Of a stretch of DNA of 64,000 nucleotides, positions 31,819-58,925 are shown piece after piece (the first letter of the stretch is position 1; every line of letters begins with the position of its first letter). The stretch lies in assembly GCA_045803245.1 (NCBI GenBank), contig JBJMPK010000122.1, positions 438 through 64,437 of the forward strand. Reading direction: 5' to 3'. Below the pieces are notes generated by a model. The model was not told the origin of the DNA. It made no database searches and was given only the letters and a program-made list of their open reading frames with translations. A program made the position numbers and the translations under genes. Origin of the DNA: Gemmatimonadales bacterium (GTDB taxonomy: Bacteria > Gemmatimonadota > Gemmatimonadetes > Gemmatimonadales > GWC2-71-9).

Positions 31819-32792
31819 TCCATTGCGAATTCGCGGTTGAACACGACCTCGAAGCTGAAAGTCTTGCTCTTGGTCCGGGTCTCCATGTGCTCGGCAATCC
31901 GCTTGAGCCGAGCCGGAATGCCCATGATCTTTTCCTGCGCTTTGCGTCCCAGCTCGTTCAGCCCCTCCAGGCTCTCGATCTTCCAGTAGCGAATCTGCTC
32001 CTGCACGATGCGGAGGTAGTCGCGCGGGCCGTAAATCCCCGCCCGGCGGATAACCTCGGCCAACTCTTTGAATCCGGGCATGGTGACCCCGGGCATATCG
32101 ATGGCCGGAAGAATGAAGGACGCGGAATGCAGCGCCTGGTCGGGATCGCGCTTCAGGATCTCTTCGAACACGGTGCGGTAAAAGGTGTAATGCCGGGCCT
32201 CCTCTTTGGCCACCTGGCTGAGAATGGAGGCAAGGCGCGGCTCATATTCGGCGATGATCTTGCCGGTTTCGCTGTGGGAGAACTGCGTGGCTCGTTCCTG
32301 AACCGTGGTGTAGGCAAAGACCCGATAGGGATCGCGATCCCACTCGGGATGGAAGCCGGCCCGAAGATATTCGAACTGCATCTCCTCGAGCTTCCGCTGG
32401 TGGAGCAAACGGGTATCCCGGGCGTAGTCGTGGAGCACCTGGCCGTGACGGTCCTCCTCCGCGGTCCACAGATTGTTCCAGCTTCGCCAGAAGCTTTCGT
32501 CTCCCAGGTACACCGCCAGCAGGCGGTGGAAGTGAGGCAGGCCCTCTTCGGTAAGGAGGTTCAGGGCCAGGGCGGCCCGCGCGGGGTCGGGGATTCCGGC
32601 GGCCTGGGCTCTCAACTCCGCGAGATGGGCGTCCGGGTCCTCATCCTGTGCCGGTCCCACCAGATCGGAGGGAAACCAGAGCTCCCGTTTCCGCTCGTGC
32701 GTTTCCATCAGCTCGCGAACCTTCTCTTCAAGGTCCTGGAGCACTTCGATCTTCGAGTAGAGTTCCCGAGCGGGTTCGGTGGCGATGCCCAT
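31815..32792 (-). CDS. soluble diiron acyl-ACP desaturase (DesA-like)
   Basis: Diiron ligand motifs (TAEEDRHG, KEEARH) and overall resemblance to stearoyl-ACP desaturase-type proteins. Confidence 0.85.
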   Translation of the reverse strand: MGIATEPARELYSKIEVLQDLEEKVRELMETHERKRELWFPSDLVGPAQDEDPDAHLAELRAQAAGIPDPARAALALNLLTEEGLPHFHRLLAVYLGDESFWRSWNNLWTAEEDRHGQVLHDYARDTRLLHQRKLEEMQFEYLRAGFHPEWDRDPYRVFAYTTVQERATQFSHSETGKIIAEYEPRLASILSQVAKEEARHYTFYRTVFEEILKRDPDQALHSASFILPAIDMPGVTMPGFKELAEVIRRAGIYGPRDYLRIVQEQIRYWKIESLEGLNELGRKAQEKIMGIPARLKRIAEHMETRTKSKTFSFEVVFNREFAME

Positions 32793-32897: not shown

Positions 32898-33332
32898 TCA
32901 GGACCCGGGCTGGCCGAGGCTCTTCTCCAGCAACGACCAGGTACGGCGGCCCAAGTAGCCCTCACGCACGAAGATGCGCCGCCACCCCAGAGCGCCCAGC
33001 AGCCCCTCGGAACGGGTGTCATCGGTCCAGAATTCTGCCAGATGGGCTCCCGACTCGGTGGCTCGCTGTTCGAAGGCCGCCAGCAGCCGGTGGGCATGTC
33101 CCCGGTGACGTTCCTGAGGTAGGACGACGATGTCTACCAGATGGGCCACGCCGCCCCGAAGCCAATACCGCAGTCCCCCAATCCAATCGCCGATCTCATT
33201 GCTCAGGATTAGGTAGCGTTCATCGAGCGCGCTGGACCAGCCGGCTGGGTCCTCTTCCTGCTCCAGGACCTCCGAGAACCAGGCCGCGAAATCCTCGTCC
33301 TGCTCCATGTCCCGAATCGTCAGCTCGCTCAT
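32898..33332 (-). CDS. GNAT-family acetyltransferase
   Basis: GNAT core (VAHLVDIVVLPQERHRGHAHRLLAAFEQRATESGA). Confidence 0.65.
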   Translation of the reverse strand: MSELTIRDMEQDEDFAAWFSEVLEQEEDPAGWSSALDERYLILSNEIGDWIGGLRYWLRGGVAHLVDIVVLPQERHRGHAHRLLAAFEQRATESGAHLAEFWTDDTRSEGLLGALGWRRIFVREGYLGRRTWSLLEKSLGQPGS

Positions 33333-33511
33333 CTGCCACCGCCTCTCCGATGGGAGACTCCCACCCTCCCGTCAGCAACAGTAATGCCACGCCCGCCTTT
33401 CTTGTCTGTGAAGGTGATCACCCCAGGCCGGGGCCGCGACGCACACCGGAGTTGCGGCGACTTACATTTGCCTTGGCCTTCTGCGAGGATACATTCCGGG
33501 ACGGAGGCTGT

Positions 33512-43036: not shown

Positions 43037-43858
43037 ATGTTCGGATTGAGAGAATGCGCGACGCTCGCCCTGTGGGGCCTGTTCGTTGGGGCTGGCCCTG
43101 CCGGTCGGGCGCAGTCGCCCGCCCTCCGATACACCTTCGGCCAACTCCACTGCGCTCGATTCCTGGAAACAGCTGAATCTACGATCGAGACGGAAACCGG
43201 CGGCTTGATCCGGGAGCAGACCTCAGGCCGCACGGCGGTGTGGCAGTTCCGGGCCGCTCCCTCAGTAGATGGGATCCGGCTCGAAGGCTGGCTCGACTCT
43301 CTCTCGCTCTGGCGAAAATCGAAGGAGACCACTATTCGCCCCGACACCGACGGCTTGATCGGGGGGCGGTATCGCGGGCTCCTGAGCGGCACGGGTGGGT
43401 ACCAAAGCCAAGCCAGGCCGTTCGTTCCCGATGAGGTGGCTGAAGTGGCGGGCATGGGTACCGCTCTGGATGACTTCTTCCCTCCGTTGCCGGTGGGTCC
43501 CATTCGTCCGGGGCAGGGCTGGAGCGACTCGTCCGGTGTCACCCTCCGGCGAATGGCAGATAGCGGTCTGGCAGGCGTCTCCCTCTACCGATACCGGCTC
43601 GAGGCCCACCGGGTGGCCAGGAGCGCTCCGGTCCGGGGAGATTCGGCTGCGCTTCCGCTCCGGCAGGTGAGCCGGGAGCTGGGCACGTTTGTCTGGCATC
43701 CGTCGTTGGGCCTGCTGCGGCGAGACCGCCGTATAGTGGTGGAGACGACGGTTCCGGCTGGCCGGACGGTGCGGCAGCCGGTGCGCGCCAGGATCGAGCA
43801 ACGGATCACGGTGCTCCGCGATCTCACCGTCCCGCCGCCGGACTCGGGAGGCTGCTAG
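43037..43858 (+). CDS. hypothetical secreted protein
   Basis: Signal-like N-terminus (ATLALWGLFVGAGPAGRAQS). No recognisable domain. Convergent with the ABC permease, with a 4-nt overlap. Confidence 0.5.
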   Translation: MFGLRECATLALWGLFVGAGPAGRAQSPALRYTFGQLHCARFLETAESTIETETGGLIREQTSGRTAVWQFRAAPSVDGIRLEGWLDSLSLWRKSKETTIRPDTDGLIGGRYRGLLSGTGGYQSQARPFVPDEVAEVAGMGTALDDFFPPLPVGPIRPGQGWSDSSGVTLRRMADSGLAGVSLYRYRLEAHRVARSAPVRGDSAALPLRQVSRELGTFVWHPSLGLLRRDRRIVVETTVPAGRTVRQPVRARIEQRITVLRDLTVPPPDSGGC

Positions 43859-44631
43859 GTGGCTGAGGGTTTGCGCCCGATGAAGCGCTGTTCCGGATCG
43901 AAGAGCGCGGCCGCCAGCCCGAATAGGGCCGCCGTTGCCGCCGCAAGGACCAGGATATCGAGTTGGACGGTGAATTCGGCCGGCTGCCCGAAGGCGTGGC
44001 GCATCAGGTCAACCTGATACGTCACCGGATTGATCCGGGCCAGGGATCGAAGCAGGTACGGCATGCCCGCGGTGGGATAGAGGGCCCCGCTCGCAAAGAG
44101 CAGCGGAAAGAGTACCACATTGATGACGCCGGCAAAATTCTCGACCGACCGCAGCCGGGCCGCGATCAAGAGTCCCAGCGTGCCGCTCGAGATGCAGCTG
44201 AGTGCCAGCGCACCGACGGCGGCTGCGAAATTCGGGAGAGATAGGGGGAGCACCAGGGGCGCACAGGCGAGGACGATGCCTCCTTGCAGCACACCGACCA
44301 GCGCCGCGGCCAACGCGCGTCCCAGCAACACTGCCGGCGCACCCGCCGGACTCGCCAGCATCAGCCGCAGCATGCCGAACTCGCGGTCGTAGACGGTCGA
44401 AATAGCCGTCAGCATCGACCCGAACAACGCCGCCATGACCACGATTCCGGGAAACACGAACGCCTGGTAGGAAAGATCTCCACTAATGCGGGCGATGGCA
44501 TTGTAGCCGGTGCCCACCAGCAGCAGCCACATGAACGGCCGCGCCACGCCGCCGAGGAGCCGGCTCGTCTGCCGGGTAGCCCTCGTCAGGTCTCTCGCCA
44601 CGATGCCGTATACCGCCGTCACCCCGCTCAT
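43855..44631 (-). CDS. ABC-2 type transporter permease
   Basis: 258 aa and about six TM segments, typical of ABC-2 (DrrB-like) permeases. ATGA overlap with the ATPase stop. Confidence 0.85.
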   Translation of the reverse strand: MSGVTAVYGIVARDLTRATRQTSRLLGGVARPFMWLLLVGTGYNAIARISGDLSYQAFVFPGIVVMAALFGSMLTAISTVYDREFGMLRLMLASPAGAPAVLLGRALAAALVGVLQGGIVLACAPLVLPLSLPNFAAAVGALALSCISSGTLGLLIAARLRSVENFAGVINVVLFPLLFASGALYPTAGMPYLLRSLARINPVTYQVDLMRHAFGQPAEFTVQLDILVLAAATAALFGLAAALFDPEQRFIGRKPSAT

Positions 44632-45554
44632 GCGGTCGGGATCTGCGTCTTGGCGAAGTAGACATCCTCGAGGGTGGGCCGACGAAGGGTGAAGCGCTCG
44701 ATTCCCGGGGCGGTACCCGCCAGCTCGACCACAGCATCGCGAGCACTACTCAGTCCCACCCGGTAGCCCCGCTCCGTCCGCACGCGAGTCCTGGCGACCC
44801 CCAGTCCGGCGAGTGCCTTGACCAGGCGCTCGGCGCCCGAGCCCTCGATCTCAGCCACCTCGACACCGATCGCGTTCTGCAGCTCGGATGGCGCGTCGTT
44901 CGCCACGACCTTTCCGCTCGACAGGAGCACAACGCGGTCGGCCGGCTCTGCTTCGGTGAGATAGTGGGTCGAGAAGAAAATGGTGGTCCCGTGCTCCCTC
45001 CGCCGGGTCTCCAGCAACGACCAAACCCGCTCCCGATGCTCGGGATCGAGTCCTACGGTCGGCTCATCGAGAATGAGAAGATCGGGCTGGTGGAGCAGGG
45101 CGCGGACGATGTCCAGAACCCGGCGCCATCCGCCTGAGAGCTGGCGTGCGGGAGTCCGGGCCCGGGGGCCGAGGCCCGACCAACCGAGCGCTCCGGCAAC
45201 AGCGGTTCTCGCGGTACTGCCTCCGAGCCCCATCAGACGGGCAGCAAAAAAAAGGTTCTCCGTTACCGTCAGAAGGCCGTCGATGGTGCTGTCCTGGAAC
45301 ACGAGCCCGAGTCTTTGCCGGACGGCCCGGCGCTGGCGGGTTACATCGTTGCCGAAGATGCGGGCCGATCCCCTGGTCGGGGCGAGGAGGGTAGCGAGCA
45401 GCAGCATAGTGGTGGTTTTGCCGGCCCCATTGGGACCCAGCAGGCCGACCATCGACCCGGGAGAGATCCGGAGATCGAGCGCGTCCAGGGCCCGGGTATC
45501 TCCGTAGTCACGTCCCAGCCGCTCGGCTTCGATGACGGGCGGCGTTCCGCTCAC
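44628..45554 (-). CDS. ABC transporter ATP-binding protein (DrrA-like)
   Basis: Walker A GPNGAGKTT, signature LSGGWRR, Walker B LLILDEPT. The GTG at 45554 forms a GTGA overlap with the pqqE stop. Confidence 0.9.
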   Translation of the reverse strand: MSGTPPVIEAERLGRDYGDTRALDALDLRISPGSMVGLLGPNGAGKTTTMLLLATLLAPTRGSARIFGNDVTRQRRAVRQRLGLVFQDSTIDGLLTVTENLFFAARLMGLGGSTARTAVAGALGWSGLGPRARTPARQLSGGWRRVLDIVRALLHQPDLLILDEPTVGLDPEHRERVWSLLETRRREHGTTIFFSTHYLTEAEPADRVVLLSSGKVVANDAPSELQNAIGVEVAEIEGSGAERLVKALAGLGVARTRVRTERGYRVGLSSARDAVVELAGTAPGIERFTLRRPTLEDVYFAKTQIPTA

Positions 45555-46645
45555 ACCGGAGCGGGCTCGCCTGCGATATGGCGGTACTGGTATTCGTGCA
45601 TGGGCCGGGACGGCTCCTGCAGCGCTTCATCGATGATTGCACGCAAGGGCGTGAGGGTGCAGACCGGGTCGGTATTGGTGGCGTCGCCGGTGAGCGCGAA
45701 AGCCTGGCACCTGCAGCCGCCGAAATCGACCGTCTTACGGGGACACGATCGACACGGCTCCTTCATCCAACCATCCCCCCGGAAGGCCCGGAAGGCCTCT
45801 GATTCCCGCCAGATCCATTCCAGTGAATGCTCTCGCACGTTGTCGAACCGCAGTGTCGTAATCTGGGTGGCGCCATGACAAGGGAGCACTGCGCCGTTGG
45901 GAGCGATAACCAGATAGAGCTTGCCCCATCCGCCATAACAGGCCTTGGGGTACGGCTCGTAGTAGTCTGGCAGGACGTAGGTGATCTGCATCCGTCCACG
46001 GTAGCGCTGAATGGCGCGCTCGGCGATTTCGCGCGACCGCTCGACCTGTTCCCGGGTGGGCTGGAGGCTGGCCCGGTTCTGGAGTCCCCACCCGTAGTAC
46101 TGGGTATTTGCCAGCTCGATGCGGTCGGCGCCCAGATCGGCTGCCATATCGATGATTTCACCGATCCGGTCCAGGTTCGCCCGGTGGAGCACGACATTGA
46201 TCGTGAACGCGAAGCCCAGCTCCCGTACCAGCGCCGCTGCCGCCTGTTTGTGCTTGACGGAGCGCAGCCCCGCGATGCGCTCCGCGATCTCGGGATCGGA
46301 GTCCTGAATCGAGATCTGAATGTGCTCCAGCCCCGCTTCCTTGAGGCGCTCGGCGCGGGGACGGGTCAGGCCGAGCCCCGACGTCACGAGGGTGGAGTAG
46401 AGACCCTGCCCGCGGGCGTGGGCCGCCAACTCCTCGAGGTCCTTGCGGAGCAGCGGCTCGCCACCTGAGAGACCCAGTTGCAGCACGCCGAGCTCCCGCG
46501 CCTGAGAGAATGCCCGTTTCCAGTCGTCGGTGGACAGCTCGGCCTCTGCCCGGATCAGCTCGAGCGGATTGGAGCAGTACGGGCAGTGAAGCGGACAGCG
46601 GTGTGTCAGCTCGGCCAGCAGTGTGGTCGGAATTTCAGTTGGCAC
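45551..46645 (-). CDS. pqqE: PQQ biosynthesis radical-SAM protein PqqE
   Basis: CPLHCPYCSNP radical-SAM cluster motif and a SPASM-type C-terminal Cys cluster. Overall PqqE pattern. Confidence 0.95.
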   Translation of the reverse strand: MPTEIPTTLLAELTHRCPLHCPYCSNPLELIRAEAELSTDDWKRAFSQARELGVLQLGLSGGEPLLRKDLEELAAHARGQGLYSTLVTSGLGLTRPRAERLKEAGLEHIQISIQDSDPEIAERIAGLRSVKHKQAAAALVRELGFAFTINVVLHRANLDRIGEIIDMAADLGADRIELANTQYYGWGLQNRASLQPTREQVERSREIAERAIQRYRGRMQITYVLPDYYEPYPKACYGGWGKLYLVIAPNGAVLPCHGATQITTLRFDNVREHSLEWIWRESEAFRAFRGDGWMKEPCRSCPRKTVDFGGCRCQAFALTGDATNTDPVCTLTPLRAIIDEALQEPSRPMHEYQYRHIAGEPAPV

Positions 46646-46925
46646 GGACCAGCTCGCGATCTGCCATTCGGCTCAGGTACTCGGTGACGTCGGTGCTGAC
46701 ATCCGCCTGGTAGCGATCGGTCAGGATGGTGACGATCTGCCCCACCGTGTGAGTTCCATTACAAAGCTCCAGGATGGCGGCTCCCGTCTCATTCAAGAGC
46801 ACCGCGCCCTCGGGATATAGAAGGACAGGCCGTTGCCTCACGGTATCGTAGTCGAGGCGAGCCAGGCGCCAGAGCCGGGGAACCGAGTCGGGAGTCAGGA
46901 GTCGGGGGTCGGCAGCCACGGTCAC
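46635..46925 (-). CDS. pqqD: PQQ biosynthesis peptide chaperone PqqD
   Basis: C-terminal 96 aa of ORF 46635..47495 (LLYPEGAVLLNETGAAILELCNGTHTVGQIV). The GTG at 46925 forms a GTGA overlap with the pqqC stop. Confidence 0.85.
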   Translation of the reverse strand: MTVAADPRLLTPDSVPRLWRLARLDYDTVRQRPVLLYPEGAVLLNETGAAILELCNGTHTVGQIVTILTDRYQADVSTDVTEYLSRMADRELVRAN

Positions 46926-47683
46926 GATTCCCGGTAGGCGTTGTGAATCGTATCGATCATCACCCACAACATCTCGAGCTTGAACGCCAGTGCGTCGAAG
47001 GCGCGGCGTTGGGTCTCCACCGTGGTGCAATGCTGCTGCACCAAACGCAGGCCCTGCCGGCTGTCGCGCGGCGCCTGGATCAGCCGGGACTTGAAATAGT
47101 CGAGAGCCTCGGGCCTGATCCACGAATAATGCGCTGGAAAGGCGGCGATCCGCTTGCGCATGAGGTCGGGCGCGAAGAGCTCGGTGAGGGACGACGCCAC
47201 CGCTTCGATCCAGGGCCTGGTTTTGCAGAAGGTCACGTAGGCTTCTGCCGCAAACCGGACTCCGGGAAGCACGTGCCGCTCGTCCTCCATCTCCTCCCGG
47301 GGCACGCCGAGTGCTTCGCCCAGACGGATCCACAATTCGATGCCGCCGGGCGCGCCGTCTGCGTTTCCGGTGCCGTCGTGATCGATGATCCGCTGGATCC
47401 ACTCCCGCCGCACCTCCGGATCGGGACAGTTCGAGATGATGGCGGCGTCCTTGCGCGGGATTGCCCGCTGATAGGCCAACCGGTTCGCCACCCACCCCTG
47501 GAGCTGTCTGGGGCTCAGCCGTCCCTCGTGCATAAGCTGATGAAAAGGATGGTTGGCATAATACGAGGTGCTGAACGAGCGCAGGCCCTCGGCCAGCGCT
47601 TCCGGCCCCAGGGGCCGGTCGAGGACGGGGATCGGCGGCGGGGGCGGAGCGGCGAGCCCGGAAGCGAACAGTGTGGTAGTCAT
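46922..47683 (-). CDS. pqqC: pyrroloquinoline-quinone synthase PqqC
   Basis: ORF trimmed to the ATG at 47683 (MTTTLF). PqqC pattern (YYANHPFHQLMHEGRLSPRQLQGWVANR). Confidence 0.95.
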   Translation of the reverse strand: MTTTLFASGLAAPPPPPIPVLDRPLGPEALAEGLRSFSTSYYANHPFHQLMHEGRLSPRQLQGWVANRLAYQRAIPRKDAAIISNCPDPEVRREWIQRIIDHDGTGNADGAPGGIELWIRLGEALGVPREEMEDERHVLPGVRFAAEAYVTFCKTRPWIEAVASSLTELFAPDLMRKRIAAFPAHYSWIRPEALDYFKSRLIQAPRDSRQGLRLVQQHCTTVETQRRAFDALAFKLEMLWVMIDTIHNAYRES

Positions 47684-47684
47684 C

Positions 47685-48593
47685 TCAAACCATGAAAGAC
47701 ATGCCGTCGGCGCCGACCTGGAGTCCGGCCCGCTCGACCCTGGCACGCTCGGGCGAGTCTTCGAGCAGCATCGGATTGGTGTTGTTGATGTGGGTGTACA
47801 CTTTGCGTGGACGGCGCAGACGGGCCAGCTGGAGAAGACTTCCGCCGGCACCCGACACCGGCAGGTGATCCATATCCCGCGCGCTACGATCGCTGATCCC
47901 AAGCACGCGCAGCTCGTTGTCGCTCCAGAACGTGCCATCGAAGAGCAGCAGATCGCTCTCTCCCAAACGCTCGAGCAGGGAGGGGTCCAAATCGCCGCAG
48001 CCGGGAACGAACGCGCAAGATCCGCCGCTGGTCTCGTCGGACAGCATGAGGCCCGCGGTGTGGCCGACCTCAGCCTCAGGCGCAAAGCGCGGCGGGCCGG
48101 CGGGCACCCGGAAAGGCTGGACCGAGATGCCGCTCGGCTCACCGCCTTGGTATCGGAGCTGAATCCGTTCTTCCAACGGCATCTCGGTCACGGTGACCGC
48201 GGCGAACGCGCGGGTAACCGGAAGCAGCCGCGAGTCGTGCTCCAGGATGGATTGCACGGCTGGCGTGGAGTACAACTGAAGCTGCCGCGCCTCCCGGAGC
48301 AGGACAATTCCCAGAGTGTGATCCAGCTCGGCATCGGTGGTGACCACGCCCTCGACCGGCACGTGGCGGCATCCGGCCGGCATGATTCCGGGAAGGCAGG
48401 CGATCTGGCTGCGAATGTCGGGAGAGGCGTTCAGCAGGAACCAGCGAAGCCCATCGGCACTGACCGCGGCGGTGGATTGGCTACGGGAATGCGCCCGGCG
48501 CGGATCGGATCGCCCGGCGCGGCACGTGGGGCACCAACAGTTCCACTGCGGGAAGCCCCCTCCAGCCGCAGTACCGAGTAGCACGACGCGCAT
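47685..48593 (-). CDS. pqqB: PQQ biosynthesis protein PqqB (metallo-beta-lactamase fold)
   Basis: MRVVLLGTAAGGGFPQWNCWCPTC N-terminus and overall PqqB pattern. Confidence 0.95.
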   Translation of the reverse strand: MRVVLLGTAAGGGFPQWNCWCPTCRAGRSDPRRAHSRSQSTAAVSADGLRWFLLNASPDIRSQIACLPGIMPAGCRHVPVEGVVTTDAELDHTLGIVLLREARQLQLYSTPAVQSILEHDSRLLPVTRAFAAVTVTEMPLEERIQLRYQGGEPSGISVQPFRVPAGPPRFAPEAEVGHTAGLMLSDETSGGSCAFVPGCGDLDPSLLERLGESDLLLFDGTFWSDNELRVLGISDRSARDMDHLPVSGAGGSLLQLARLRRPRKVYTHINNTNPMLLEDSPERARVERAGLQVGADGMSFMV

Positions 48594-48605
48594 GTTGAAT
48601 AGCCG

Positions 48606-48629
48606 AAGGGCCCGCTTTCACGGGCCCTT
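48606..48629 (-). promoter_or_regulatory. stem-loop between pqqA and pqqB
   Basis: aagggcccg / cgggccctt form a 9-bp perfect stem with a 6-nt loop, located 14 nt after the pqqA stop. Only a weak U run follows. Confidence 0.55.
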
Positions 48630-48643
48630 GAACTCAGCTCCAG

Positions 48644-48718
48644 TTAGAGCGTCGCGACGTAGGCAGTGACTTCCATCGTGACGGCCACGACTTCAGCTTC
48701 GGGCTTGGTCCAGGACAT
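48644..48718 (-). CDS. pqqA: PQQ precursor peptide PqqA (24 aa, below ORF-track cutoff)
   Basis: Translated by hand: MSWTKPEAEVVAVTMEVTAYVATL. It has the conserved E-x3-Y cross-link pair (EVTAY) and the WxKP N-terminus. GGAG lies 8 nt upstream, and the ORF sits directly upstream of pqqB. Confidence 0.9.
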   Translation of the reverse strand: MSWTKPEAEVVAVTMEVTAYVATL

Positions 48719-48812
48719 GATGTACGCTCCAGTTCAGTGTAAGATCTGCGAGTGCTCCTGGGTCATTTAACCCAGCCGGGCCGTCGCGTCGACCCGATGA
48801 CACCGCTCGTAA

Positions 48813-48828
48813 AGCATCCGACGTGCCA
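48813..48828 (-). promoter_or_regulatory. sigma-54 (-24/-12) promoter upstream of pqqA
   Basis: The minus strand reads TGGCACGTCGGATGCT, against the consensus TGGCACG-N4-TTGCW. GG and GC have the correct 10-nt spacing. The element lies ~95 nt upstream of the pqqA ATG. An AT-rich IHF-like stretch (TTCAAATGTTTG) lies ~35 nt further upstream. Confidence 0.6.
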
Positions 48829-48955
48829 CGCGGCACCTCAGTACCAGCACAGAGCCCAAACATTTGAACACTATGTCTTTGGAGACCAGCGCCGAGCCAC
48901 AGCCCCTATTTTGAGAACCGGCCGGGACTGGGGCATCCCACCGAACTGGGTGTTC

Positions 48956-50374
48956 TCACCCACTCTGGATTCCGAACTTCTTCAACCGGTAGCGCAGGGT
49001 GTCACGGGTAATGCCCAGGCGCTGTGCGGCCTTGGTCTGATTTCCGCCGGCTTCTCTCATGGCGCGCTCGATCAGCGTGCGCTCCCACAGGGTAAGGTCT
49101 CCGTCCCGAGGCAGCTCGGGTGCGGCAGGCCCCTCGGTGGTCCGCACAGCATTCGTGGGCATAGATGTCTCATCGCGGCCATCCGCCTCCGGGCGCACCG
49201 GGGTGGCGAGCGAAAGGTGCTCGACCTTGAGCGTCGAATCGCGGCTCCAAAGCACCGCCCGCTCGATGACGTGGCTCAGCTCCCTGACGTTGCCGGGCCA
49301 GGGATATGCCAGCAGCACCTCGCGGGCAGGTCCATCGATCCGCCGGACGTCTTTGCCATACTTGGCGCTGAAGCGCCGGAGATAGTGGTCGGCCAGGAGA
49401 AGTGCATCCTCTCCTCGTTCCCGCAGCGGCGGCAAGTGAAGCAGGATGACGGCCAGCCGAAAGTACAGGTCGTTGCGGAAGCGACCCTGTTGAACCTCGC
49501 GATCCAGGTCGCGGTTCGTGGCAGCTAGAATTCGCACGTCGATCTTCCGATCCCGGATCCCCCCTACCCGGCGGACAGTCCGCTCCTCGATCGCCCGGAG
49601 CAGCTTCCCCTGAAGCGACTGCTCCAGGTCTCCCACCTCGTCCAGGAACAGAAATCCGGCTTCCGCGGCTTCGAATAAGCCGAGCTTCGACTCCTTAGCA
49701 TCGGTGAACGCGCCTCGCTCGTATCCGAACAGCTCCGCTTCCATGAGATTGGCCGGCAACGCGGTGCAGTTCACGTCGATAAACGGTTTATCCGCGCGCC
49801 GGCCGGAGCCGTGGAGCGTGCGGGCGACCAATCCCTTTCCGGTACCAGTCTCACCAGTGATGAGGACCGGCGGCATTTCGTCCAGGGCGGCCACCTGGCG
49901 AACCTGTTCCATGACGGCGCGCAGTGCCGGTGAGCTGCCCAGTATCCCCGCGAACGGTATCTCACTGGCGGCCTTCCGGCGGTAGTAGGAGAGCTCCTGC
50001 TTCATGAGTGCGGTCTGGCGGGCCCGGTCCGCCAATAGCTTGAGCTCCTCCAAATCGACCGGCTTCTTCATGTAGTCGAACGCGCCGAGCTTGACCGCCT
50101 CGACCGCGCCCTCGATGGTCCCGTAGGCGGTCATGATGATCACCGGAATGGCGGCATCGAACTCCCGAATGCGCCGCAGGAGGTCGATACCGCTCATGCC
50201 GGGCAGGCGCACGTCGGCGAACACCACGTCGGGCCGGAGCCGGGGAAGCATCTCGATCGCTTGCTCCGCGTCAGCGGCGACCTCGGCCTCGTATCCGGCT
50301 TCACTCAGGAAGGCCTTGACCGCACGAGCCAGGGTACGCTCGTCATCGACGATGAGAACCGTGGATCCGCTCAT
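48956..50374 (-). CDS. sigma-54-dependent response regulator (NtrC family)
   Basis: Receiver domain (VLIVDDE, DVVFADVRLPGMSG). AAA+ sigma-54 activator domain (GETGTGKG, ERGAFTDA, i.e. the GAFTGA loop). Fis-type HTH (AAQRLGITRDTLRYRLKKFGI). Confidence 0.9.
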   Translation of the reverse strand: MSGSTVLIVDDERTLARAVKAFLSEAGYEAEVAADAEQAIEMLPRLRPDVVFADVRLPGMSGIDLLRRIREFDAAIPVIIMTAYGTIEGAVEAVKLGAFDYMKKPVDLEELKLLADRARQTALMKQELSYYRRKAASEIPFAGILGSSPALRAVMEQVRQVAALDEMPPVLITGETGTGKGLVARTLHGSGRRADKPFIDVNCTALPANLMEAELFGYERGAFTDAKESKLGLFEAAEAGFLFLDEVGDLEQSLQGKLLRAIEERTVRRVGGIRDRKIDVRILAATNRDLDREVQQGRFRNDLYFRLAVILLHLPPLRERGEDALLLADHYLRRFSAKYGKDVRRIDGPAREVLLAYPWPGNVRELSHVIERAVLWSRDSTLKVEHLSLATPVRPEADGRDETSMPTNAVRTTEGPAAPELPRDGDLTLWERTLIERAMREAGGNQTKAAQRLGITRDTLRYRLKKFGIQSG

Positions 50375-51840
50375 ATCGGGACGGCTGCCTCGGACCGCGC
50401 GGCCCGCAGCCGCAATCGAACGGTGGTTCCTCCCGGCCGGCTCACGATCTCGAGCCGTCCGCCGTTTTGCTCCACGTAGCGCTTGGCGATGGCGAGTCCC
50501 AGGCCGGTGCCCTCCTGCCTGGTGGTGAAGAACGGCTCACACACCGACGGGAGCACCTGCTCAGGAATGCCGGGACCGGTATCGGCGATCTCGATGACCA
50601 CCTGGGTAGAACCATCGGCATCTCCATCGCGCGAAGCAGCGATACGAAGCCGCCCTCCATCCGGCATGGCGTCGAGCGCGTTGGAGACTACCTCGACCAG
50701 CGCTTGTTCCAGCTGCATCGGGTCAACCCGCACGTCCGGAAGGCCGGGGGAGAGATCGAGCTGGAGCTCCACCCGCCGGTCCCGAATCAGCTGCGAAAAG
50801 GCGGGCAGCAGGCTCTCGACCAGACGCGGGACGCTCTCCTGGAGTGGGTGGAACGGGGCGGGACGGGAGAAGCTCAGCAGGTGACTGATCCGGCGGTCCA
50901 GACGATCGACCTCTTCGATAATGGCATCGAGATGCTCGGATGAGGATGGAGACTCAGGGTGACGGCGGACCAGTTGAGCCGCCGCTCGAAGGCTCGCCAG
51001 CGGGTTTCGGAGTCCGTGGGCCACCGCGGCCGCCATCTCGCCGATGGAGGCCAGCTTTTCCGATTGCACCAGTTGGGCTCGGGATTGGCGGAGATTCTCG
51101 GTCATCCGGCCGAACGCGCCCGCGAGCTCGCCGATCTCATCTTTGGATTGCGGGGTAATGGGGTGATCCAGCTGGCCGGCGCCCACCACCGCCATGGCGC
51201 CGGTGAGCTGGTTGAGCGGGCGGGCCAGACTGCGTGAGATCAGCCAGGAGCCGATGAGACCGCCGGCGAGTGACAGTATCAGAATGGCGAGCAGCACCCG
51301 TTCCTGGGAGGCGAGAATCTCCTCCAACCGGGCGTACGCGCCCCGGACGCTCGACTCCCGGGCCCGCCGGTAAATCTCCCGATTCATCTGCGTCAGCGCC
51401 GGCAGCAGGCGGCCTTTGAGCTCCCGCTGGGCGGCCGAATAGGCCTGCTGATGGTGGCCGGTGTCGAAGAGACGAAAGACGCTATCCGCGGCCGCCTGGA
51501 TCTGCTGCTGAATGCCACGCACGCCGTCGGCGAGACCCATCTCCTCGGGGCGAAGCTCCGCCGTCCACCGTCGCTGCCAGTAGTCGACCACCTCGCCGTT
51601 TAGCCGAAATTCCTTCTTTGCGGTGGGATCCATCCCGGTGAGATAGCGCCAGATGACCTCACTCTGATCGAACATCGCCGTTTCCAGCTCGGCGTAGGTC
51701 CGAGTCCGCGCCATACTCTGTCCCAGCGCCTGCAGCGCCCGGCGCTCGAGCAGGTTACTCCGGATCGCCTCCGCCCCAATCAGGAGCGCGGGGAGGACCA
51801 TGAGCGAAAAGCCAAGCAGCAGTTTGCGTTGGAAGGTCAC
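50371..51840 (-). CDS. sensor histidine kinase (periplasmic helical sensor, HAMP, HisKA, HATPase)
   Basis: Two TM segments flank a ~150-aa sensor region, followed by a HAMP domain. H-box AHGLRNPL. G-boxes DTGPGIP and GTGLGLAIA. 4-nt overlap with the regulator gene. Confidence 0.9.
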   Translation of the reverse strand: MTFQRKLLLGFSLMVLPALLIGAEAIRSNLLERRALQALGQSMARTRTYAELETAMFDQSEVIWRYLTGMDPTAKKEFRLNGEVVDYWQRRWTAELRPEEMGLADGVRGIQQQIQAAADSVFRLFDTGHHQQAYSAAQRELKGRLLPALTQMNREIYRRARESSVRGAYARLEEILASQERVLLAILILSLAGGLIGSWLISRSLARPLNQLTGAMAVVGAGQLDHPITPQSKDEIGELAGAFGRMTENLRQSRAQLVQSEKLASIGEMAAAVAHGLRNPLASLRAAAQLVRRHPESPSSSEHLDAIIEEVDRLDRRISHLLSFSRPAPFHPLQESVPRLVESLLPAFSQLIRDRRVELQLDLSPGLPDVRVDPMQLEQALVEVVSNALDAMPDGGRLRIAASRDGDADGSTQVVIEIADTGPGIPEQVLPSVCEPFFTTRQEGTGLGLAIAKRYVEQNGGRLEIVSRPGGTTVRLRLRAARSEAAVPI

Positions 51841-51907
51841 GTCTCAAAGCTAACCGATACAACGAGGGCCGGTCAGACGCCCTACTTTCCCTCCCACCCC
51901 ATTTAAA

Positions 51908-51945
51908 CACGGATGACCACGGATGGGAACGGATGAGCACGGATT
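51908..51945 (+). repeat. four tandem 10-bp-periodic repeats, core CACGGATG
   Basis: cacggatg at 51908, cacggatg at 51918, aacggatg at 51928 and cacggatt at 51938, with exactly 10-bp spacing. The repeats overlap the 5' end of the GxxExxY ORF. Confidence 0.85.
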
Positions 51946-52372: not shown

Positions 52373-52387
52373 GAACGATCTGTTGCC

Positions 52388-52405
52388 CATCCGTGTTCAT
52401 CCGTG
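52388..52405 (+). repeat. two 10-bp-periodic repeats CATCCGTG, inverted relative to 51908-51945
   Basis: catccgtg at 52388 and 52398 is the reverse complement of CACGGATG. The repeats lie 16 nt after the ORF stop. Confidence 0.85.
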
Positions 52406-55042: not shown

Positions 55043-56161
55043 ATGTCGGACGCATTCTTCAGCTCCGACGACTTCGACGAACAAGCCCATCACCTCTACA
55101 ATGAAGGCCGCTACGATGAAGCCCTGACCGTCCTGAAGGAAGGCATCGCTCTTTATCCCCACGCAGTCGAACTGCATATCGGCCGAGCCTATGCTCACCT
55201 CGCACGGGAGGAATTCGCCTGGGCGCGGCGCAGCTTCGAGCAGGCCCTTGCCCTCGATCCCGATCATGAAGACGGACTCGCCGGTCTAGGTGAGACGCTG
55301 CTCAAGCTGGGAGACCGGGCCGGCGCCATGCGGGCAGTCGAGCGGATCCTGCAGTTGGGGTTTCAGGACGACCACGAGCTCATGCTCCAGATCGGGCGGG
55401 CCCTCTTTCGGGAAGGGCTGGTTGCGCCGGCGCACCGTTTCTTCGATCTAGCCGCCGCGGCCCATCCCGAATCGCCCGACGCCGCTGCTTGCCTGGGCTA
55501 CGCGTCGCACCGGCTGGGCAACGATGCCGGCTCGCTCTATTGGCTCCGACGAGCGCTGGAAATCGACGCGACCTACAGTGAAGCCAGGATCTACCTCGCC
55601 AACCTGCTCTACGATCGGGGCGAGACCGAAGCCGCGCTCCACCATCTCGAGCGGACCCAGCCGGAGGATCACTATGACGAGCTGGGCATTTGGCGTCACA
55701 TCGAGCTGAAGAAGACCATCTACCGGCTGCCGGACGAGGATCCCGAGCTCGCTCCCTGGTTGGTGCGGTTGGGCGAAGTGGCCGGTGAACCTGACTCGAT
55801 CGACATGCTGCTGGCCGAAGTGGAGGCCCAAAACGCAGACGGGGGTGTCCGAGACCCACACCAGCTCGAGCTGTTCGGCACCCTTCTGAGTGAGCTCCAT
55901 GCCATGCAGAAGAAGCCGGGTCATGCCGAATCCCACCTGATCATGACCCTTGCCGGCCACAGCATTCGGGGCACCTGGGATGAAATCCTGCTGCAGATGA
56001 AGGCCGCCGACCGGGAGTGGGCCAAGGGCTCGCTCAGCGATTTCATGGCCAGCCTGGCCCGGCGCGGTCACGCGGAGACCGGCGTGGTAATCCCTACCAC
56101 CGATGCGGAGGCTTTCATTCGGGGCAGCGCGGAGGCGGGAGTGCTTCGGATCGTCCAATAA
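55043..56161 (+). CDS. TPR-repeat protein
   Basis: Several TPR-like units in the N-terminal 200 aa (e.g. AHHLYNEGRYDEALTVLKEGIALYP). The C-terminal half is unassigned. Confidence 0.7.
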   Translation: MSDAFFSSDDFDEQAHHLYNEGRYDEALTVLKEGIALYPHAVELHIGRAYAHLAREEFAWARRSFEQALALDPDHEDGLAGLGETLLKLGDRAGAMRAVERILQLGFQDDHELMLQIGRALFREGLVAPAHRFFDLAAAAHPESPDAAACLGYASHRLGNDAGSLYWLRRALEIDATYSEARIYLANLLYDRGETEAALHHLERTQPEDHYDELGIWRHIELKKTIYRLPDEDPELAPWLVRLGEVAGEPDSIDMLLAEVEAQNADGGVRDPHQLELFGTLLSELHAMQKKPGHAESHLIMTLAGHSIRGTWDEILLQMKAADREWAKGSLSDFMASLARRGHAETGVVIPTTDAEAFIRGSAEAGVLRIVQ

Positions 56162-56184: not shown

Positions 56185-56290
56185 GTGAGCGGTGAGCGGG
56201 GGGCCCGGTTAAATTTCGGACTCCCCGCTTGTTTTCCGAGTACAGGGATTGAACTGCGATGACCGTTTCCAGCGCCCGCTCACCGCTCAC
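56185..56290. repeat. 16-bp perfect inverted repeat bracketing the M16 start codon
   Basis: gtgagcggtgagcggg (56185-56200) is the reverse complement of cccgctcaccgctcac (56275-56290). Both arms are themselves tandem heptamers (GTGAGCG x2). Confidence 0.8.
56194..56235 (+). terminator. putative intrinsic terminator after the TPR gene
   Basis: gagcgggggg / ctccccgctt form a stem with G-U pairs and a 17-nt loop, followed by tgtttt. The left arm overlaps the left arm of the 16-bp inverted repeat. Confidence 0.5.
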
Positions 56291-58925
56291 CTCACACCTC
56301 TCACCTGTCTGGACGGCGGGCGTCCGCCGCGAAGTTCTCCCCAACGGCCTCACTCTACTGGTTCAGCCGGACCATTCCGCGCCGGTCGTGGCGGTGGTCA
56401 CCCACGTGAAGGCGGGGTTCTTCGATGAACCCGACCGGTGGACCGGTATTTCGCACGTGCTGGAGCACATGTTCTTCACGGGACCGGCTCGACGCGGGGT
56501 GGGTCAGATTGCCCGGGAAACCAAAGCCGCGGGGGGGTATCTCAACGCCGGTACCGGGTACGATCACACCAGCTATTTCAGCGTGCTTCCATCGTCGGGA
56601 CTCGAAACGGCCCTGGATATCCAGGCCGATGCGCTGCGCCATTCGGTTATCGATGCCGATGAGCTGCGCCGAGAGCTCCAGGTCATCGTTCAGGAGGCCA
56701 AACGGAAGCTGGATACGGCCAGTGCCGTGGCCCACGAGACCCTGCACCAGGTCATGTTCGACCGGCATCGGATCAGGCGCTGGCGCATTGGACGGGAGGA
56801 CCAGTTGGCCCGGCTGACTCGCGACGATGTCTGGTCCTATTATCGCTCACGGTATGTCCCGGAGCGCACCATTGTGGCGATCGCGGGGGATATCGACCCA
56901 GACCGCGGGTTGGAGCTGGGCCGGGCGGCCTACGTCGGGTGGACTGCCGCACCTGGCGCAGTGGATCCGTCACCGGACGAGCCTCCCCATCGGGAAGTCC
57001 GGGCCCGGACCCTCCGGGGCGACGTCAGCCAGGCTGAGCTGGTCCTGGGCTGGCGTACGGTACCGCCCCTTCACCAGGACGCACCCGCCCTGGATCTCGC
57101 TGCCGCGGTGCTAGGATCAGGCCGGGGGAGCTGGCTCTACCGGGCGCTGCGCGAGCGGGGGATCGTGACGTCGATCTCCGCCCATAATTACACGCCGACG
57201 GAGCTGGGAGTCTTCAGCATCGGGGCCGACCTCGCCCCGGAGAGGCTGCCGCTCGCGCTCGAAGCCATCGCGGAGTCCGTCGCCCGGCTCACCCTCTTGG
57301 GGCCAGACGCCGGGGAGCTCGAGCGAGCGCGGACGCTGCTCCAATCGCGCTGGGCTCGCCGGCTCGAACCGATGGAAGGAAAGGCTGCCGCTCTGGCCTC
57401 GGCGGAGGCTCTGGAGCACGTGTCGTTCTTAGATCGTGAGTACGAGGCCCTGGGGCGGGTCGAGCCGGATGAGCTACGCGCCGCGGCAGCCCGGTACCTC
57501 CACCCGGACGACATTTCCGCCGTGGTTTACCTGCCAGATAATGCCGGCCCCCAACTGGATGCCCAGCTGCTGGAGCAGAGCTTCGCGGTTTCGGCGCTGC
57601 GGAAACCGTCCTCGGTTTCGCCCGCCCGTATCGATGTGCCACGGCCGGTCCGTCTGGCCGGCCGCAGCGAAGCGGAGGTGTTCCACACCGCCCTTCCCGG
57701 AGTGGACCTTCTGGTTCGACAGAAGCCTGGCGTTCCTCTGGCCACCCTGGGGATGTACGTACCGCGGCCGGAGTTCGATCCCCCGGAATCGGCCGGTCTC
57801 GGTGCCCTGGTGGTTCGAAGCTCTGTGCGTGGGGCTGGGGCTTTCGACACCGGAGAGCTGGCATTTGCGTTCGAGCACCTCGGTGGCACGCTGGCTGCCA
57901 GCGTTGCCTCGGACTGGTTGGGCTTCGGCACCACGGTGCTCTCCGAGCATCTGGGCGAGGCCGGGGTTCTCATCGACACCGTATTCAGCACACCGCGGCT
58001 GGTCGAGGCCGACGTCCTCACCGAGCGAGAGCTCATGATTCGGGAGGCCGAGCAGGTTGCCGATGACATGTTTCGTTACCCGTTTCAGTTGGGCTTCTCG
58101 GCGGCATTCGGCAATGCCGGATACGGTCTACCCGCAAGCGGCCTTCCCGACACACTGGCCAACATCGGTGCGGCGGAGGTGCGGAACTGGCACGAGCGCG
58201 CTCTGCTCGGGGTCCGACCGGTCGTGGTTGCGGTGGGAGACATCGAGCCGGAGTCGGCCGCGGCCACCCTGGCCGGTATCTTTCAAAAGCGGAGTCACGC
58301 GCCTGACCACCGAACGCTGTCGGACCTTCCCTGGGCTGTGACCAGGTCCGAGGGCTCCACCAATGTGGTCACCCGGGAAAAGGCCCAGGCGGCGCTCGCG
58401 ATGATCTTTCCCGGTCCCCAGCGGCGTGATCCCGACCGATTCGCGGCCGAAGTCTGGGCTGCGGTTGCGAGCGGGCTCGGTGGAAGGATGTTCGAGGCGC
58501 TGCGGGACCGGCGGTCTCTCGCCTATACCGTGCTTGCGTCGAGTTGGCAGCGGGGCCGAGCCGGGGCATTGGTGACGTACATCGCGACGTCGCCCGACCG
58601 CGAGGCCGAGGCCCGGGCCGCCATGCTGCAGGAGCTGGAGCGGTTCACACGCGAGCCGGTCAGTGCCTCCGAGCTGGGGCAAGCCATCAGCTACCTGGCG
58701 GGCCAGGCGGAAGTCGGGCGGCAGAGTGGAAGCGCGCTGGCGGGCGAGATCCTCGAGGCATGGCTCATCGGCAACGGTCTCGAGGATCTGGAAAATCCGG
58801 GTGCGGCATTCCGAAGGGTCACGGCGGACCAGGTCCTGCGGATCGCCAGTCGGTATCTCGAGCCGTCCCAGCGGGCGGAAGGGGTGGTGCGGGGTACCGG
58901 GCTCAGCTCGCCAATCGCCGGTTGA
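56259..58925 (+). CDS. fused double M16 (pitrilysin-family) zinc peptidase
   Basis: HxxEH zinc motif (GISHVLEHMFF) in the first module. The second half repeats the M16 fold without the motif. 888 aa in total. Confidence 0.85.
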   Translation: MTVSSARSPLTSHLSPVWTAGVRREVLPNGLTLLVQPDHSAPVVAVVTHVKAGFFDEPDRWTGISHVLEHMFFTGPARRGVGQIARETKAAGGYLNAGTGYDHTSYFSVLPSSGLETALDIQADALRHSVIDADELRRELQVIVQEAKRKLDTASAVAHETLHQVMFDRHRIRRWRIGREDQLARLTRDDVWSYYRSRYVPERTIVAIAGDIDPDRGLELGRAAYVGWTAAPGAVDPSPDEPPHREVRARTLRGDVSQAELVLGWRTVPPLHQDAPALDLAAAVLGSGRGSWLYRALRERGIVTSISAHNYTPTELGVFSIGADLAPERLPLALEAIAESVARLTLLGPDAGELERARTLLQSRWARRLEPMEGKAAALASAEALEHVSFLDREYEALGRVEPDELRAAAARYLHPDDISAVVYLPDNAGPQLDAQLLEQSFAVSALRKPSSVSPARIDVPRPVRLAGRSEAEVFHTALPGVDLLVRQKPGVPLATLGMYVPRPEFDPPESAGLGALVVRSSVRGAGAFDTGELAFAFEHLGGTLAASVASDWLGFGTTVLSEHLGEAGVLIDTVFSTPRLVEADVLTERELMIREAEQVADDMFRYPFQLGFSAAFGNAGYGLPASGLPDTLANIGAAEVRNWHERALLGVRPVVVAVGDIEPESAAATLAGIFQKRSHAPDHRTLSDLPWAVTRSEGSTNVVTREKAQAALAMIFPGPQRRDPDRFAAEVWAAVASGLGGRMFEALRDRRSLAYTVLASSWQRGRAGALVTYIATSPDREAEARAAMLQELERFTREPVSASELGQAISYLAGQAEVGRQSGSALAGEILEAWLIGNGLEDLENPGAAFRRVTADQVLRIASRYLEPSQRAEGVVRGTGLSSPIAG

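Follow-up and report, generated by a model that had tools for sequence, protein, structure and literature searches.

Organization of the pqq locus

The window analyzed here, a 64-kb stretch of DNA from a Gemmatimonadales bacterium, contains a pqq operon preceded on the same strand by the genes of a two-component system. The first gene of the operon, pqqA (MSWTKPEAEVVAVTMEVTAYVATL; 48644-48718, minus strand, as for the other genes and elements of this locus), encodes a 24-residue PQQ precursor with the E-X3-Y motif (EVTAY), and GGAG is found at 48727-48730. The peptide passes NCBIfam model TIGR02107 with a score of 21.1 against a cut-off of 20 and is conserved in 58 loci. It is followed by pqqB (47685..48593; TIGR02108 score 341.9, cut-off 245), pqqC (46922..47683; PF03070, E-value 1e-46, with the start taken at the ATG giving MTTTLF), pqqD (46635..46925; PF05402, start approximate) and pqqE, a radical SAM/SPASM enzyme (45551..46645; PF04055 and PF13186). 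The gene order, with assignments by TIGR02107, TIGR02108 and Pfam, is thus that of a pqqABCDE operon. A GC-rich hairpin (AAGGGCCCG-loop-CGGGCCCUU; 48606..48629) lies between pqqA and pqqB in the minimum-free-energy fold; similar hairpins are seen 3' of pqqA in two related loci (L018 and L047).

Two further genes, identified with Pfam as an ABC ATPase (44628-45554) and an ABC-2 permease (43855-44631), each overlap the preceding gene by 4 nt. The pair overlaps pqqE by this distance and so looks translationally coupled to it here; it is an accessory part of the operon, and only some 15 of 25 informative loci have it. The two proteins resemble DrrA/B (DrrAB) and the PedA/PedC-type families TIGR03864 and TIGR03861, with all scores below the cut-offs, and that they export PQQ is a guess. 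Neither a PQQ-dependent dehydrogenase nor a second enhancer-binding protein was detected by Pfam among 20 further ORFs of the window that were scanned.

The two-component system consists of a sensor histidine kinase (50371..51840) and an NtrC-type response regulator (bEBP; 48956..50374), the stop codon of the first overlapping the start of the second by 4 nt. The kinase has a first transmembrane helix, a periplasmic domain (about residues 26-178), a second transmembrane helix and, according to Pfam, HAMP, HisKA and HATPase_c domains. When scanned alone, the periplasmic domain matched no Pfam family, even at an E-value of 10. In the AF2 model, residues 45-160 are all helical, with a pLDDT of about 90, and the Foldseek matches are four-helix-bundle ligand-binding domains (MCP2201, Adeh_2942, PcaY, Tar and NarQ). 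The sensor domain is therefore predicted to be a periplasmic four-helix bundle, a layout of membrane helix, bundle, membrane helix and HAMP that fits the periplasmic signal suggested in the original prediction.

The regulator comprises REC (PF00072), Sigma54_activat (PF00158), AAA_lid_14 (PF25601) and Fis-type HTH_8 (PF02954) domains. Its sigma-54 interaction loop reads GAFTDA, one position off the textbook GAFTGA; this form is kept in all 70 matches in related loci and in 27 of the 51 more distant homologues retrieved. These domains and the loop confirm that a sensor kinase and a sigma-54 activator are encoded upstream of pqqA on the same strand. In NCBIfam the regulator is closest to AtoC and NtrC, both below cut-off (AtoC, 460.5 against 714), and the kinase core is nearest AtoS and ZraS (AtoS, 225.2 against 646). 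With scores this far below the cut-offs, the pair are not orthologues of AtoC and AtoS.

A conserved sigma-54-type promoter element precedes pqqA

The sequence at 48828-48813 reads TGGCACGTCGGATGCT and has the -24 and -12 elements of a sigma-54 promoter. The GG-N10-GC spacing is correct, and the only mismatch to TGGCACG-N4-TTGCW is an A in place of the first T of TTGC. This agrees with the near-consensus site described in the original prediction at about 95 nt from pqqA; the distance from the end of the motif to the pqqA ATG (48718) is 94 nt. No other position in the 64-kb window matches the consensus with one mismatch or fewer. From standard sigma-54 promoter geometry, we infer a transcription start about 12 nt past the C of the GC dinucleotide (48800..48804); a start near 48802 would give a leader of ~84 nt.

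Scoring of the site against background, which the original prediction had proposed, was performed with an approximate sigma-54 weight matrix and gave 15.55, the second-highest score in the window after that of 33374-33389 (16.72). The best scores of 200 simulated 64-kb sequences had a mean of 14.3 and a standard deviation of 1.3, which places the observed site about one standard deviation higher. The promoter sequence by itself is therefore only suggestive: its score is within the reach of chance for a window of this size and is not decisive. A scan of 48550-49000 for sigma-70-like promoters and terminators found neither; for the promoters it relied on the consensus of E. coli, which possibly does not hold in this phylum. 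With no terminator separating pqqA from the regulator gene, read-through from the kinase and regulator genes could also express pqqA.

The decisive evidence is conservation, which the original prediction had named among its tests. We compared 57 distinct related loci, mostly from Gemmatimonadales and including two Methylomirabilota-type loci (L020 and L106). The motif is invariant upstream of pqqA: YGGCAY-N6-TGC is found 58-136 nt 5' of the gene in 57 of 57 loci, and the form GGCA[CT][AG]-N5-TGC is likewise kept in every distinct upstream region (57/57), while spacer and flanks drift. The -24 and -12 bases carry 1.0-2.5 bits of information, against about 0-0.4 bits in the bases around them. 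The motif also accompanies pqqA in loci of altered gene order (L098-L100; L018 and L047; L066, L069 and L081). In L098-L100, pqqA lies between pqqD and pqqE, and in L066, L069 and L081 an insertion of ~1.1 kb follows the regulator gene; in both groups the promoter and the palindromes described below still accompany pqqA. That the motif is a chance match, with pqqA transcribed by read-through from the kinase and regulator genes or from an unrecognised housekeeping promoter, would be compatible with the modest score and the lack of a terminator after the regulator gene. We consider it highly improbable given a motif that persists between drifting flanks and follows its gene through rearrangements, and given that the E. 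coli consensus revealed no sigma-70-like site in this region.

Searches by tblastn and with the RpoN-box motif detected no gene for sigma-54 itself (rpoN), either in the window or in 1.33 Mb of retrieved DNA. Gemmatimonas aurantiaca has sigma-54 (YP_002761129.1; PMC3162934, additional file 1), and across genomes sigma-54 is found together with its activators almost without exception (PMC3162934).

Tandem palindromes upstream of the promoter

An activator of the NtrC family is expected to have repeated palindromes about 100-200 bp upstream of the promoter, and a search for inverted repeats conserved in orthologous loci, also proposed originally, revealed a tandem pair of the form TGGGT-N6-ACCCA. 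Palindrome 1 (TGGGTGAGAACACCCA; 48947..48962) is centred at about -152 and overlaps the TGA stop codon of the regulator gene; palindrome 2 (TCGGTGGGATGCCCCA; 48929..48944), a weaker copy 18 bp downstream, is centred at about -134. Palindrome 1 is conserved in related loci, most of which have a degenerate second copy 18-20 bp from it. Palindrome 1 lies either 126-127 or 136-137 bp from the promoter, a bimodal spacing whose two values are one helical turn apart, so that the sites are helically phased. We propose that palindromes 1 and 2 are binding sites of the adjacent regulator. Palindrome 1 was also considered as a terminator of the regulator gene and rejected, having a stem of 5-6 bp and no U tract.

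The window contains only two exact copies of TGGGT-N6-ACCCA. Across 496 kb of related DNA, all 83 exact palindromes fall within 300 nt upstream of pqqA, where ~0.5 would be expected by chance. The palindrome also varies together with the DNA-binding domain of the regulator: the HTH helix (S/T)RDTLRYR(L/M)KK is paired with TGGGT..ACCCA, and GRGALRHRVKK with CAGCCAATTGGCTG, a change seen in one out-group lineage and hence a single independent contrast. The order kinase, regulator and pqq genes is conserved in related loci, across lineages with 65-89% regulator identity.

These observations bear on whether the promoter could be real and driven by a different enhancer-binding protein, with the palindromes bound by another factor and the adjacent pair controlling something else or only itself. 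Adjacency is circumstantial, and the entry for Gemmatimonas aurantiaca in one listing contains about a dozen enhancer-binding proteins (PMC3162934, additional file 1). Nevertheless, the synteny is kept at this level of divergence, the locus contains no other conserved regulator gene, and the palindrome occurs in the 496 kb in this spacer only and changes with the HTH helix in the out-group; we judge such an arrangement improbable. Taken together, the invariant promoter motif, the synteny, the exclusive palindromes and the HTH co-variation support the original reading that the two-component pair switches on PQQ synthesis.

Between the palindromes and the promoter, near -65, an AT-richer patch (GTTCAAATGTTTG; 48857..48869) may bind IHF or another DNA-bending protein. 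The IHF-like sequence noted originally is present (TTCAAATGTTTG; 48868-48857); it has two mismatches to WATCAANNNNTTR, and the core NAA-N4-TTR, of low information content, occurs at the equivalent position in only 18 of the 57 loci. A small information peak is seen over the 57 loci at TT, -32/-31 relative to the promoter GG. An IHF site between enhancer and promoter is thus weakly supported.

Hairpins and a third palindrome in the predicted leader

The predicted leader contains two potential hairpins. The first, P1 (ATCGGGTC...GGCCCGGC; 48775..48798), would begin ~5 nt past the predicted start site. Compensatory changes are found in four of its eight pairs, G-U pairs are frequent, and 90.7% of cells are paired; none of 500 shuffles match this pairing, and slid controls reach 26-51%. 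RNAalifold predicts the P1 helix core independently, and both leader hairpins, with a small covariation term (-0.41 kcal/mol). The single-sequence minimum-free-energy fold of the leader forms neither P1 nor P2, so that the case for P1 is one of covariation. The most likely role of P1 is to stabilise the pqqA message.

The second hairpin, P2, coincides with palindrome 3 (TGGGTTAAATGACCCA; 48759..48774), an exact copy of the upstream palindrome centred at about +36, within the predicted transcribed leader. In 46 of 57 loci, the interval between the promoter GG and the start of this copy is constant at 52 +/- 1 nt. The copy is dispensable in some lineages, and two loci with short leaders (L010 and L084) are without it and keep a different, co-varying 5' hairpin.

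The +36 palindrome and the hairpin before it could together form an RNA element that stabilises the message or serves as a sensor or protein-binding site for translation or decay, its likeness to the upstream sites being secondary. The compensatory changes and abundant G-U pairs of P1, which make sense only on the sense RNA strand, the position of P1 close to the predicted 5' end, the prediction of both hairpins by RNAalifold and the substitute hairpin of the short-leader loci are all consistent with such an element. However, the P2 core is invariant in 42 sequences whereas P1 drifts, which points to sequence-specific recognition and not to a mere stem, and the consensus of palindrome 3 is that of the untranscribed upstream site 1. 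The single-sequence fold and the small covariation term also count against an RNA element, as does a search of 48500-49100 against Rfam, which gave chance-level matches only (E-values of at least 0.3, located inside pqqA) and no Rfam family. We therefore hold an RNA element to be possible, if somewhat doubtful; the most likely function of the +36 palindrome is to bind the same regulator once more, whether as a third dimer site or as a brake.

A model for activation of the pqq operon

Our favored interpretation, which we consider likely, is that a sigma-54 promoter ahead of the pqq genes is activated by the adjacent kinase and regulator through the upstream palindromes. From the order and spacing of these elements we infer the following steps. 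A sigma-54-dependent promoter within the 237 nt that separate pqqA from the regulator gene would serve pqqA and its downstream genes, here pqqBCDE and the ABC-2 pair. On this promoter, RNA polymerase with sigma-54 would form a closed complex at the -24/-12 elements (48813-48828). A small molecule sensed by the periplasmic four-helix bundle of the membrane kinase would lead to phosphorylation of the NtrC-type regulator, which would occupy the tandem palindromes at ~-152 and ~-134 and assemble into an AAA+ ring. DNA looping, which bending of the AT-richer patch near -65 may assist, would bring the ring to the promoter, and ATP hydrolysis by the ring would open the complex. In the resulting transcript, the short hairpin near the 5' end would most likely stabilise the pqqA message, and the third palindrome at +36 would most likely offer the same regulator an additional site, either a third dimer site or a brake.

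A more specific version takes the two-component pair to be devoted to sensing the periplasmic supply of, or demand for, PQQ and gives the +36 palindrome a dual use, as regulator-binding DNA (in a feedback or promoter-wrapping loop) and as the second 5' RNA hairpin. It is prompted by the fold class of the sensor, since four-helix bundles of this class bind organic acids and PQQ is a tricarboxylate; we think it unlikely.

Most work on the regulation of PQQ synthesis concerns Proteobacteria, and Gemmatimonadales are soil bacteria that are abundant but poorly studied. MxbDM and MxcQE regulate pqq in Methylobacterium. The system proposed here would resemble these and AgmR of Pseudomonas in placing PQQ synthesis under a dedicated signal-transduction system; it differs in the class of regulator, and a sigma-54 promoter is not reported for them. 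In Pseudomonas, control is by the LuxR-type AgmR (ErbR), whose gene lies away from the pqq operon (PMC12997753). Proposals of sigma-54 regulators are limited to date to the neighborhood of xoxF in Methylobacillus and do not extend to pqqA (PMC9988556). A search of the literature for sigma-54 or rpoN together with pqq returned no paper tying pqqA to sigma-54, in agreement with the original remark that this is an unusual pattern for pqq operons. The arrangement thus appears to be an ordinary bEBP/sigma-54 switch on a new target, the pqq operon, for which the searched literature holds no earlier report. General concepts of sigma-54 control would be unchanged. Should the model hold, Gemmatimonadales would make PQQ in an all-or-none, signal-gated manner, as sigma-54 control typically entails; a defined sensor domain would be on hand for finding the cue, and the locus would offer a compact, well-delimited promoter and enhancer module for reporter work together with a natural case of an activator site at +36.

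Among known systems, NtrB/NtrC at glnAp2 has tandem dimer sites located over 100 bp 5' of a GG-N10-GC promoter and depends on the helical face, features that the candidate sites mirror here. NtrB is cytoplasmic and senses PII, whereas the present kinase resides in the membrane and has a periplasmic domain; the extra low-affinity 'governor' sites that modulate output at glnAp2 lie between enhancer and promoter, whereas the extra site here is downstream of the predicted start. A site downstream of the start is the enhancer itself in the ftr elements of FlbD in Caulobacter and the downstream activating sequence of RocR in Bacillus; the +36 candidate shares this position, but here two upstream candidate sites are also present and the downstream copy can be lost.

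The closest parallel in gene arrangement is AtoS/AtoC of Escherichia coli, encoded directly upstream of the sigma-54-dependent atoDAEB operon in the same orientation, with AtoC binding an upstream palindromic repeat (PMC3118216). Both loci place the two-component genes directly 5' of the target operon and a palindromic repeat upstream of the start, and AtoC and AtoS are the best NCBIfam matches of the regulator and the kinase core. They differ in the sensor, here a predicted periplasmic four-helix bundle unlike that of AtoS, and in the target, which is cofactor biosynthesis here and fatty-acid catabolism there. The candidate sites are 16-bp TGGGT-N6-ACCCA palindromes with a further copy at +36, compared with two 20-bp sites for AtoC.

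A probable sigma-54 promoter upstream of pqqA

The sequence TGGCACGTCGGATGCT on the minus strand at 48828-48813 has the GG-N10-GC spacing of a sigma-54 promoter and a single mismatch to TGGCACG-N4-TTGCW; nothing else in the window comes within one mismatch of that consensus. Downstream of it lies pqqA (48644-48718, minus strand; 24 codons, product MSWTKPEAEVVAVTMEVTAYVATL), which scores 21.1 against the NCBIfam PqqA model (cut-off 20). The genes behind it are, in order, pqqBCDE and those for an ABC ATPase and an ABC-2 permease. Upstream of pqqA, the same strand encodes a sensor kinase (50371-51840; HAMP, HisKA, HATPase_c) and a response regulator (48956-50374) that combines REC, sigma-54 interaction and AAA-lid domains with a Fis-type HTH. 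The original prediction had described the motif, pqqA and the kinase/regulator pair accurately. Between pqqA and pqqB there is a strong GC-rich hairpin (48606-48629, minus strand), with similar hairpins after pqqA in two related loci (L018 and L047); it could determine how much pqqA transcript there is relative to the downstream transcripts.

An approximate sigma-54 weight matrix, built from the published consensus and with a maximum possible score of 20.2, gave this site 15.55, the second-highest score in the window. The best scores in 200 simulated 64-kb sequences had a mean of 14.3 (sd 1.3), against which the window sequence alone is suggestive of a promoter, but not conclusive. As the score is within reach of the simulated best, relatives were needed to test the site.

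The top score in the window, 16.72, belongs to the intergenic sequence TGGCATTACTGTTGCT (33374-33389, minus strand). It may be a second sigma-54 promoter and lies 42 nt before a GNAT acetyltransferase gene (32898-33332), behind which is a fatty-acid desaturase gene (31815-32792). The nearby ORFs that were scanned include no activator gene.

Conservation of the promoter among related loci

The window derives from an uncultured Gemmatimonadales bacterium. The regulator has homologues of 65-89% identity in 23 genome-collection loci, of which 21 carry a Gemmatimonadota, Gemmatimonadales or Gemmatimonadaceae label, and in approximately 50 metagenome contigs. The order kinase, regulator, pqqA, pqqBCDE is kept among these relatives, which yielded 57 distinct regions upstream of pqqA for comparison. 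YGGCAY[AG]-N5-TGC is present in all 57, at 58-136 nt (mostly 100-120 nt) before the pqqA ATG; loss of the motif from relatives that share the two-component pair, which would have spoken against the original prediction, was not observed. Aligned at the GG, the regions carry 1.0-2.5 bits of information at GGCAY and TGC, against approximately 0-0.4 bits in the spacer and flanks.

Three natural rearrangements, in each of which the promoter stays with pqqA, strengthen this evidence. L098-L100 carry the genes as kinase, regulator, pqqBCD, pqqA, pqqE, and the enhancer and promoter precede pqqA rather than following the regulator gene; in L018 and L047, pqqE directly follows pqqA and the promoter is retained; and in L066, L069 and L081 an insert of approximately 1.1 kb separates the regulator gene from the enhancer while the promoter still adjoins pqqA. 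The sequence TGGCACGACTTGTGCT also occurs upstream of pqqA in two loci from another lineage, L020, labelled Methylomirabilota, and L106. Overall, the original observation holds, and its interpretation is for the most part right.

Two side observations concern these loci. The TTA three bases after TGC-N (48808-48810, minus strand; approximately -10 to -8) carries 1.0-1.6 bits across related loci, extending the conserved -12 region to TGC-N-TTA. In the Methylomirabilota-type loci L020 (2130-2300) and L106, the regulator, sigma-54 promoter and pqqA are kept and PqqA is divergent (MAWVKPEYTEVRMDAEINSYILVLE).

The sigma-54 contact loop of the regulator, as GAFTDA, is kept in 70/70 matches from related loci. 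No rpoN was found in the 64-kb window or in 1.33 Mb of other DNA searched; the evidence for sigma-54 itself is indirect, from this loop and from Francke et al. (PMC3162934), who report near-perfect co-occurrence of sigma-54 and its activators, and list a sigma-54 orthologue and multiple activators for Gemmatimonas aurantiaca.

Candidate enhancer and DNA-bending sites

The spacer between the regulator gene and pqqA contains the only two perfect copies of TGGGT-N6-ACCCA in the window. One of these, site 1 (48947-48962), overlaps the TGA stop of the regulator gene and is centred approximately 152 nt before the predicted start site; 18 bp downstream of it is a weaker copy, site 2 (48929-48944). 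The pairing of site 1 with a degenerate site 2, 18-20 bp apart, recurs across related loci. Related DNA totalling 496 kb has 83 perfect palindromes, every one no more than 300 nt upstream of pqqA, against a chance expectation of approximately 0.5. Site 1 lies either 126-127 bp or 136-137 bp from the promoter GG; the two classes differ by one helical turn, which is what a bound protein that has to face the promoter would require. The HTH recognition helix reads (S/T)RDTLRYR(L/M)KK wherever the palindrome is TGGGT..ACCCA, and GRGALRHRVKK in L020 and L106, where the palindrome is CAGCCAATTGGCTG. This pairing of helix and palindrome, a single independent contrast, is the signature expected if the adjacent regulator reads the sites.

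The IHF-like patch of the original prediction, TTCAAATGTTTG (48868-48857), is present but has two mismatches to the IHF consensus, and the core NAA-N4-TTR is found at the same position in just 18/57 loci, with almost no occurrences elsewhere. Modest conservation is also seen for a TT pair, 31-32 nt ahead of the GG. A bending site here is plausible, not established, on this comparison.

The pqqA leader

Two leader features absent from the original prediction merit attention: an activator-type palindrome at +36 and a 5' hairpin, P1. P1 (48775-48798) lies between the promoter and the palindrome. Among 42 distinct sequences, double compensatory changes occur at four of its eight pairs and pairing is kept in 90.7% of cells, with many G-U pairs; this level was reached by 0/500 shuffles, and slid controls gave 26-51%. 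The G-U pairs point to selection on the sense-strand RNA, and also support transcription here in the pqqA direction. As P1 would begin approximately 5 nt from the predicted 5' end, it is probably a stabilising 5' stem-loop. Short-leader lineages have another 5' hairpin, likewise co-varying, without the +36 copy. No Rfam family matches the leader region.

The third palindrome, also a perfect copy (48759-48774, minus strand; centre near +36), starts 52 ± 1 nt after the promoter GG in 46/57 loci. RNAalifold, unaided, recovered the P1 core and a second hairpin formed by this palindrome. The core of the palindrome does not vary and matches the consensus of site 1, which is not transcribed, so a DNA site for the regulator is a more likely reading than a plain RNA stem. 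Such a site might serve as a third dimer site or as a brake.

The kinase sensor domain

Approximately 150 residues of the kinase are flanked by two membrane helices and match no Pfam family. An AlphaFold model built with 27 homologues is a confident all-helical bundle (pLDDT ~90 for residues 45-160), which Foldseek places among periplasmic four-helix-bundle ligand-binding domains (MCP2201, Adeh_2942, PcaY, Tar and NarQ), with target-normalised TM-scores up to 0.8 and E-values all weaker than 0.001. The predicted topology supports the proposal of a periplasmic signal.

Relation to known systems and neighbouring genes

The nearest system in architecture is AtoS/AtoC with atoDAEB (PMC3118216), where the two-component genes are encoded just upstream of the sigma-54-dependent operon and a palindromic site for the activator lies ahead of the transcription start. 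Among protein families, too, AtoC and AtoS come closest to the regulator and kinase, at scores far below the cut-offs; the pair is thus related in kind, not by orthology. The pqq regulation described so far depends on regulators of different classes, among them AgmR of Pseudomonas, a LuxR-type protein (PMC12997753), and this fits the earlier remark that the pattern is not the one familiar from pqq operons. In Methylobacillus, sigma-54 regulators have been suggested next to xoxF only (PMC9988556). The full-text literature searched, which has gaps in coverage, contained no description of a sigma-54 promoter in front of pqqA; that is no more than absence of evidence. The proposed pqq switch is of the textbook enhancer-dependent kind, on a new operon in an understudied order.

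The ABC ATPase and ABC-2 permease genes (43855-45554, minus strand) follow pqqE, each overlapping the preceding gene by 4 nt. Below cut-offs, they resemble TIGR03864 and TIGR03861, families linked to a PQQ-dependent alcohol dehydrogenase system. The pair occurs in approximately 15 of 25 informative loci and is accessory; the proposal that the switch extends to PQQ export is the weakest part of the original prediction.

On the plus strand, a PD-(D/E)XK gene (PF13366; 51923-52372) separates an HlyD-type gene from the kinase gene and has short CATCCGT/ACGGATG repeats on either side (~51905-51935 and 52380-52400); it is present in some related loci only, and for this reason looks like a variable insertion. 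A TPR protein (55043-56161, plus strand) is unusually strongly conserved, with 91-96% identity across nearly all related loci against approximately 75% for its neighbours. An M16 peptidase of 888 residues (56259-58925, plus strand), syntenic with the pqq locus, has weak N-terminal similarity to PqqF (TIGR02110, 80.9 bits; cut-off 320) and is a candidate PqqA-processing protease.
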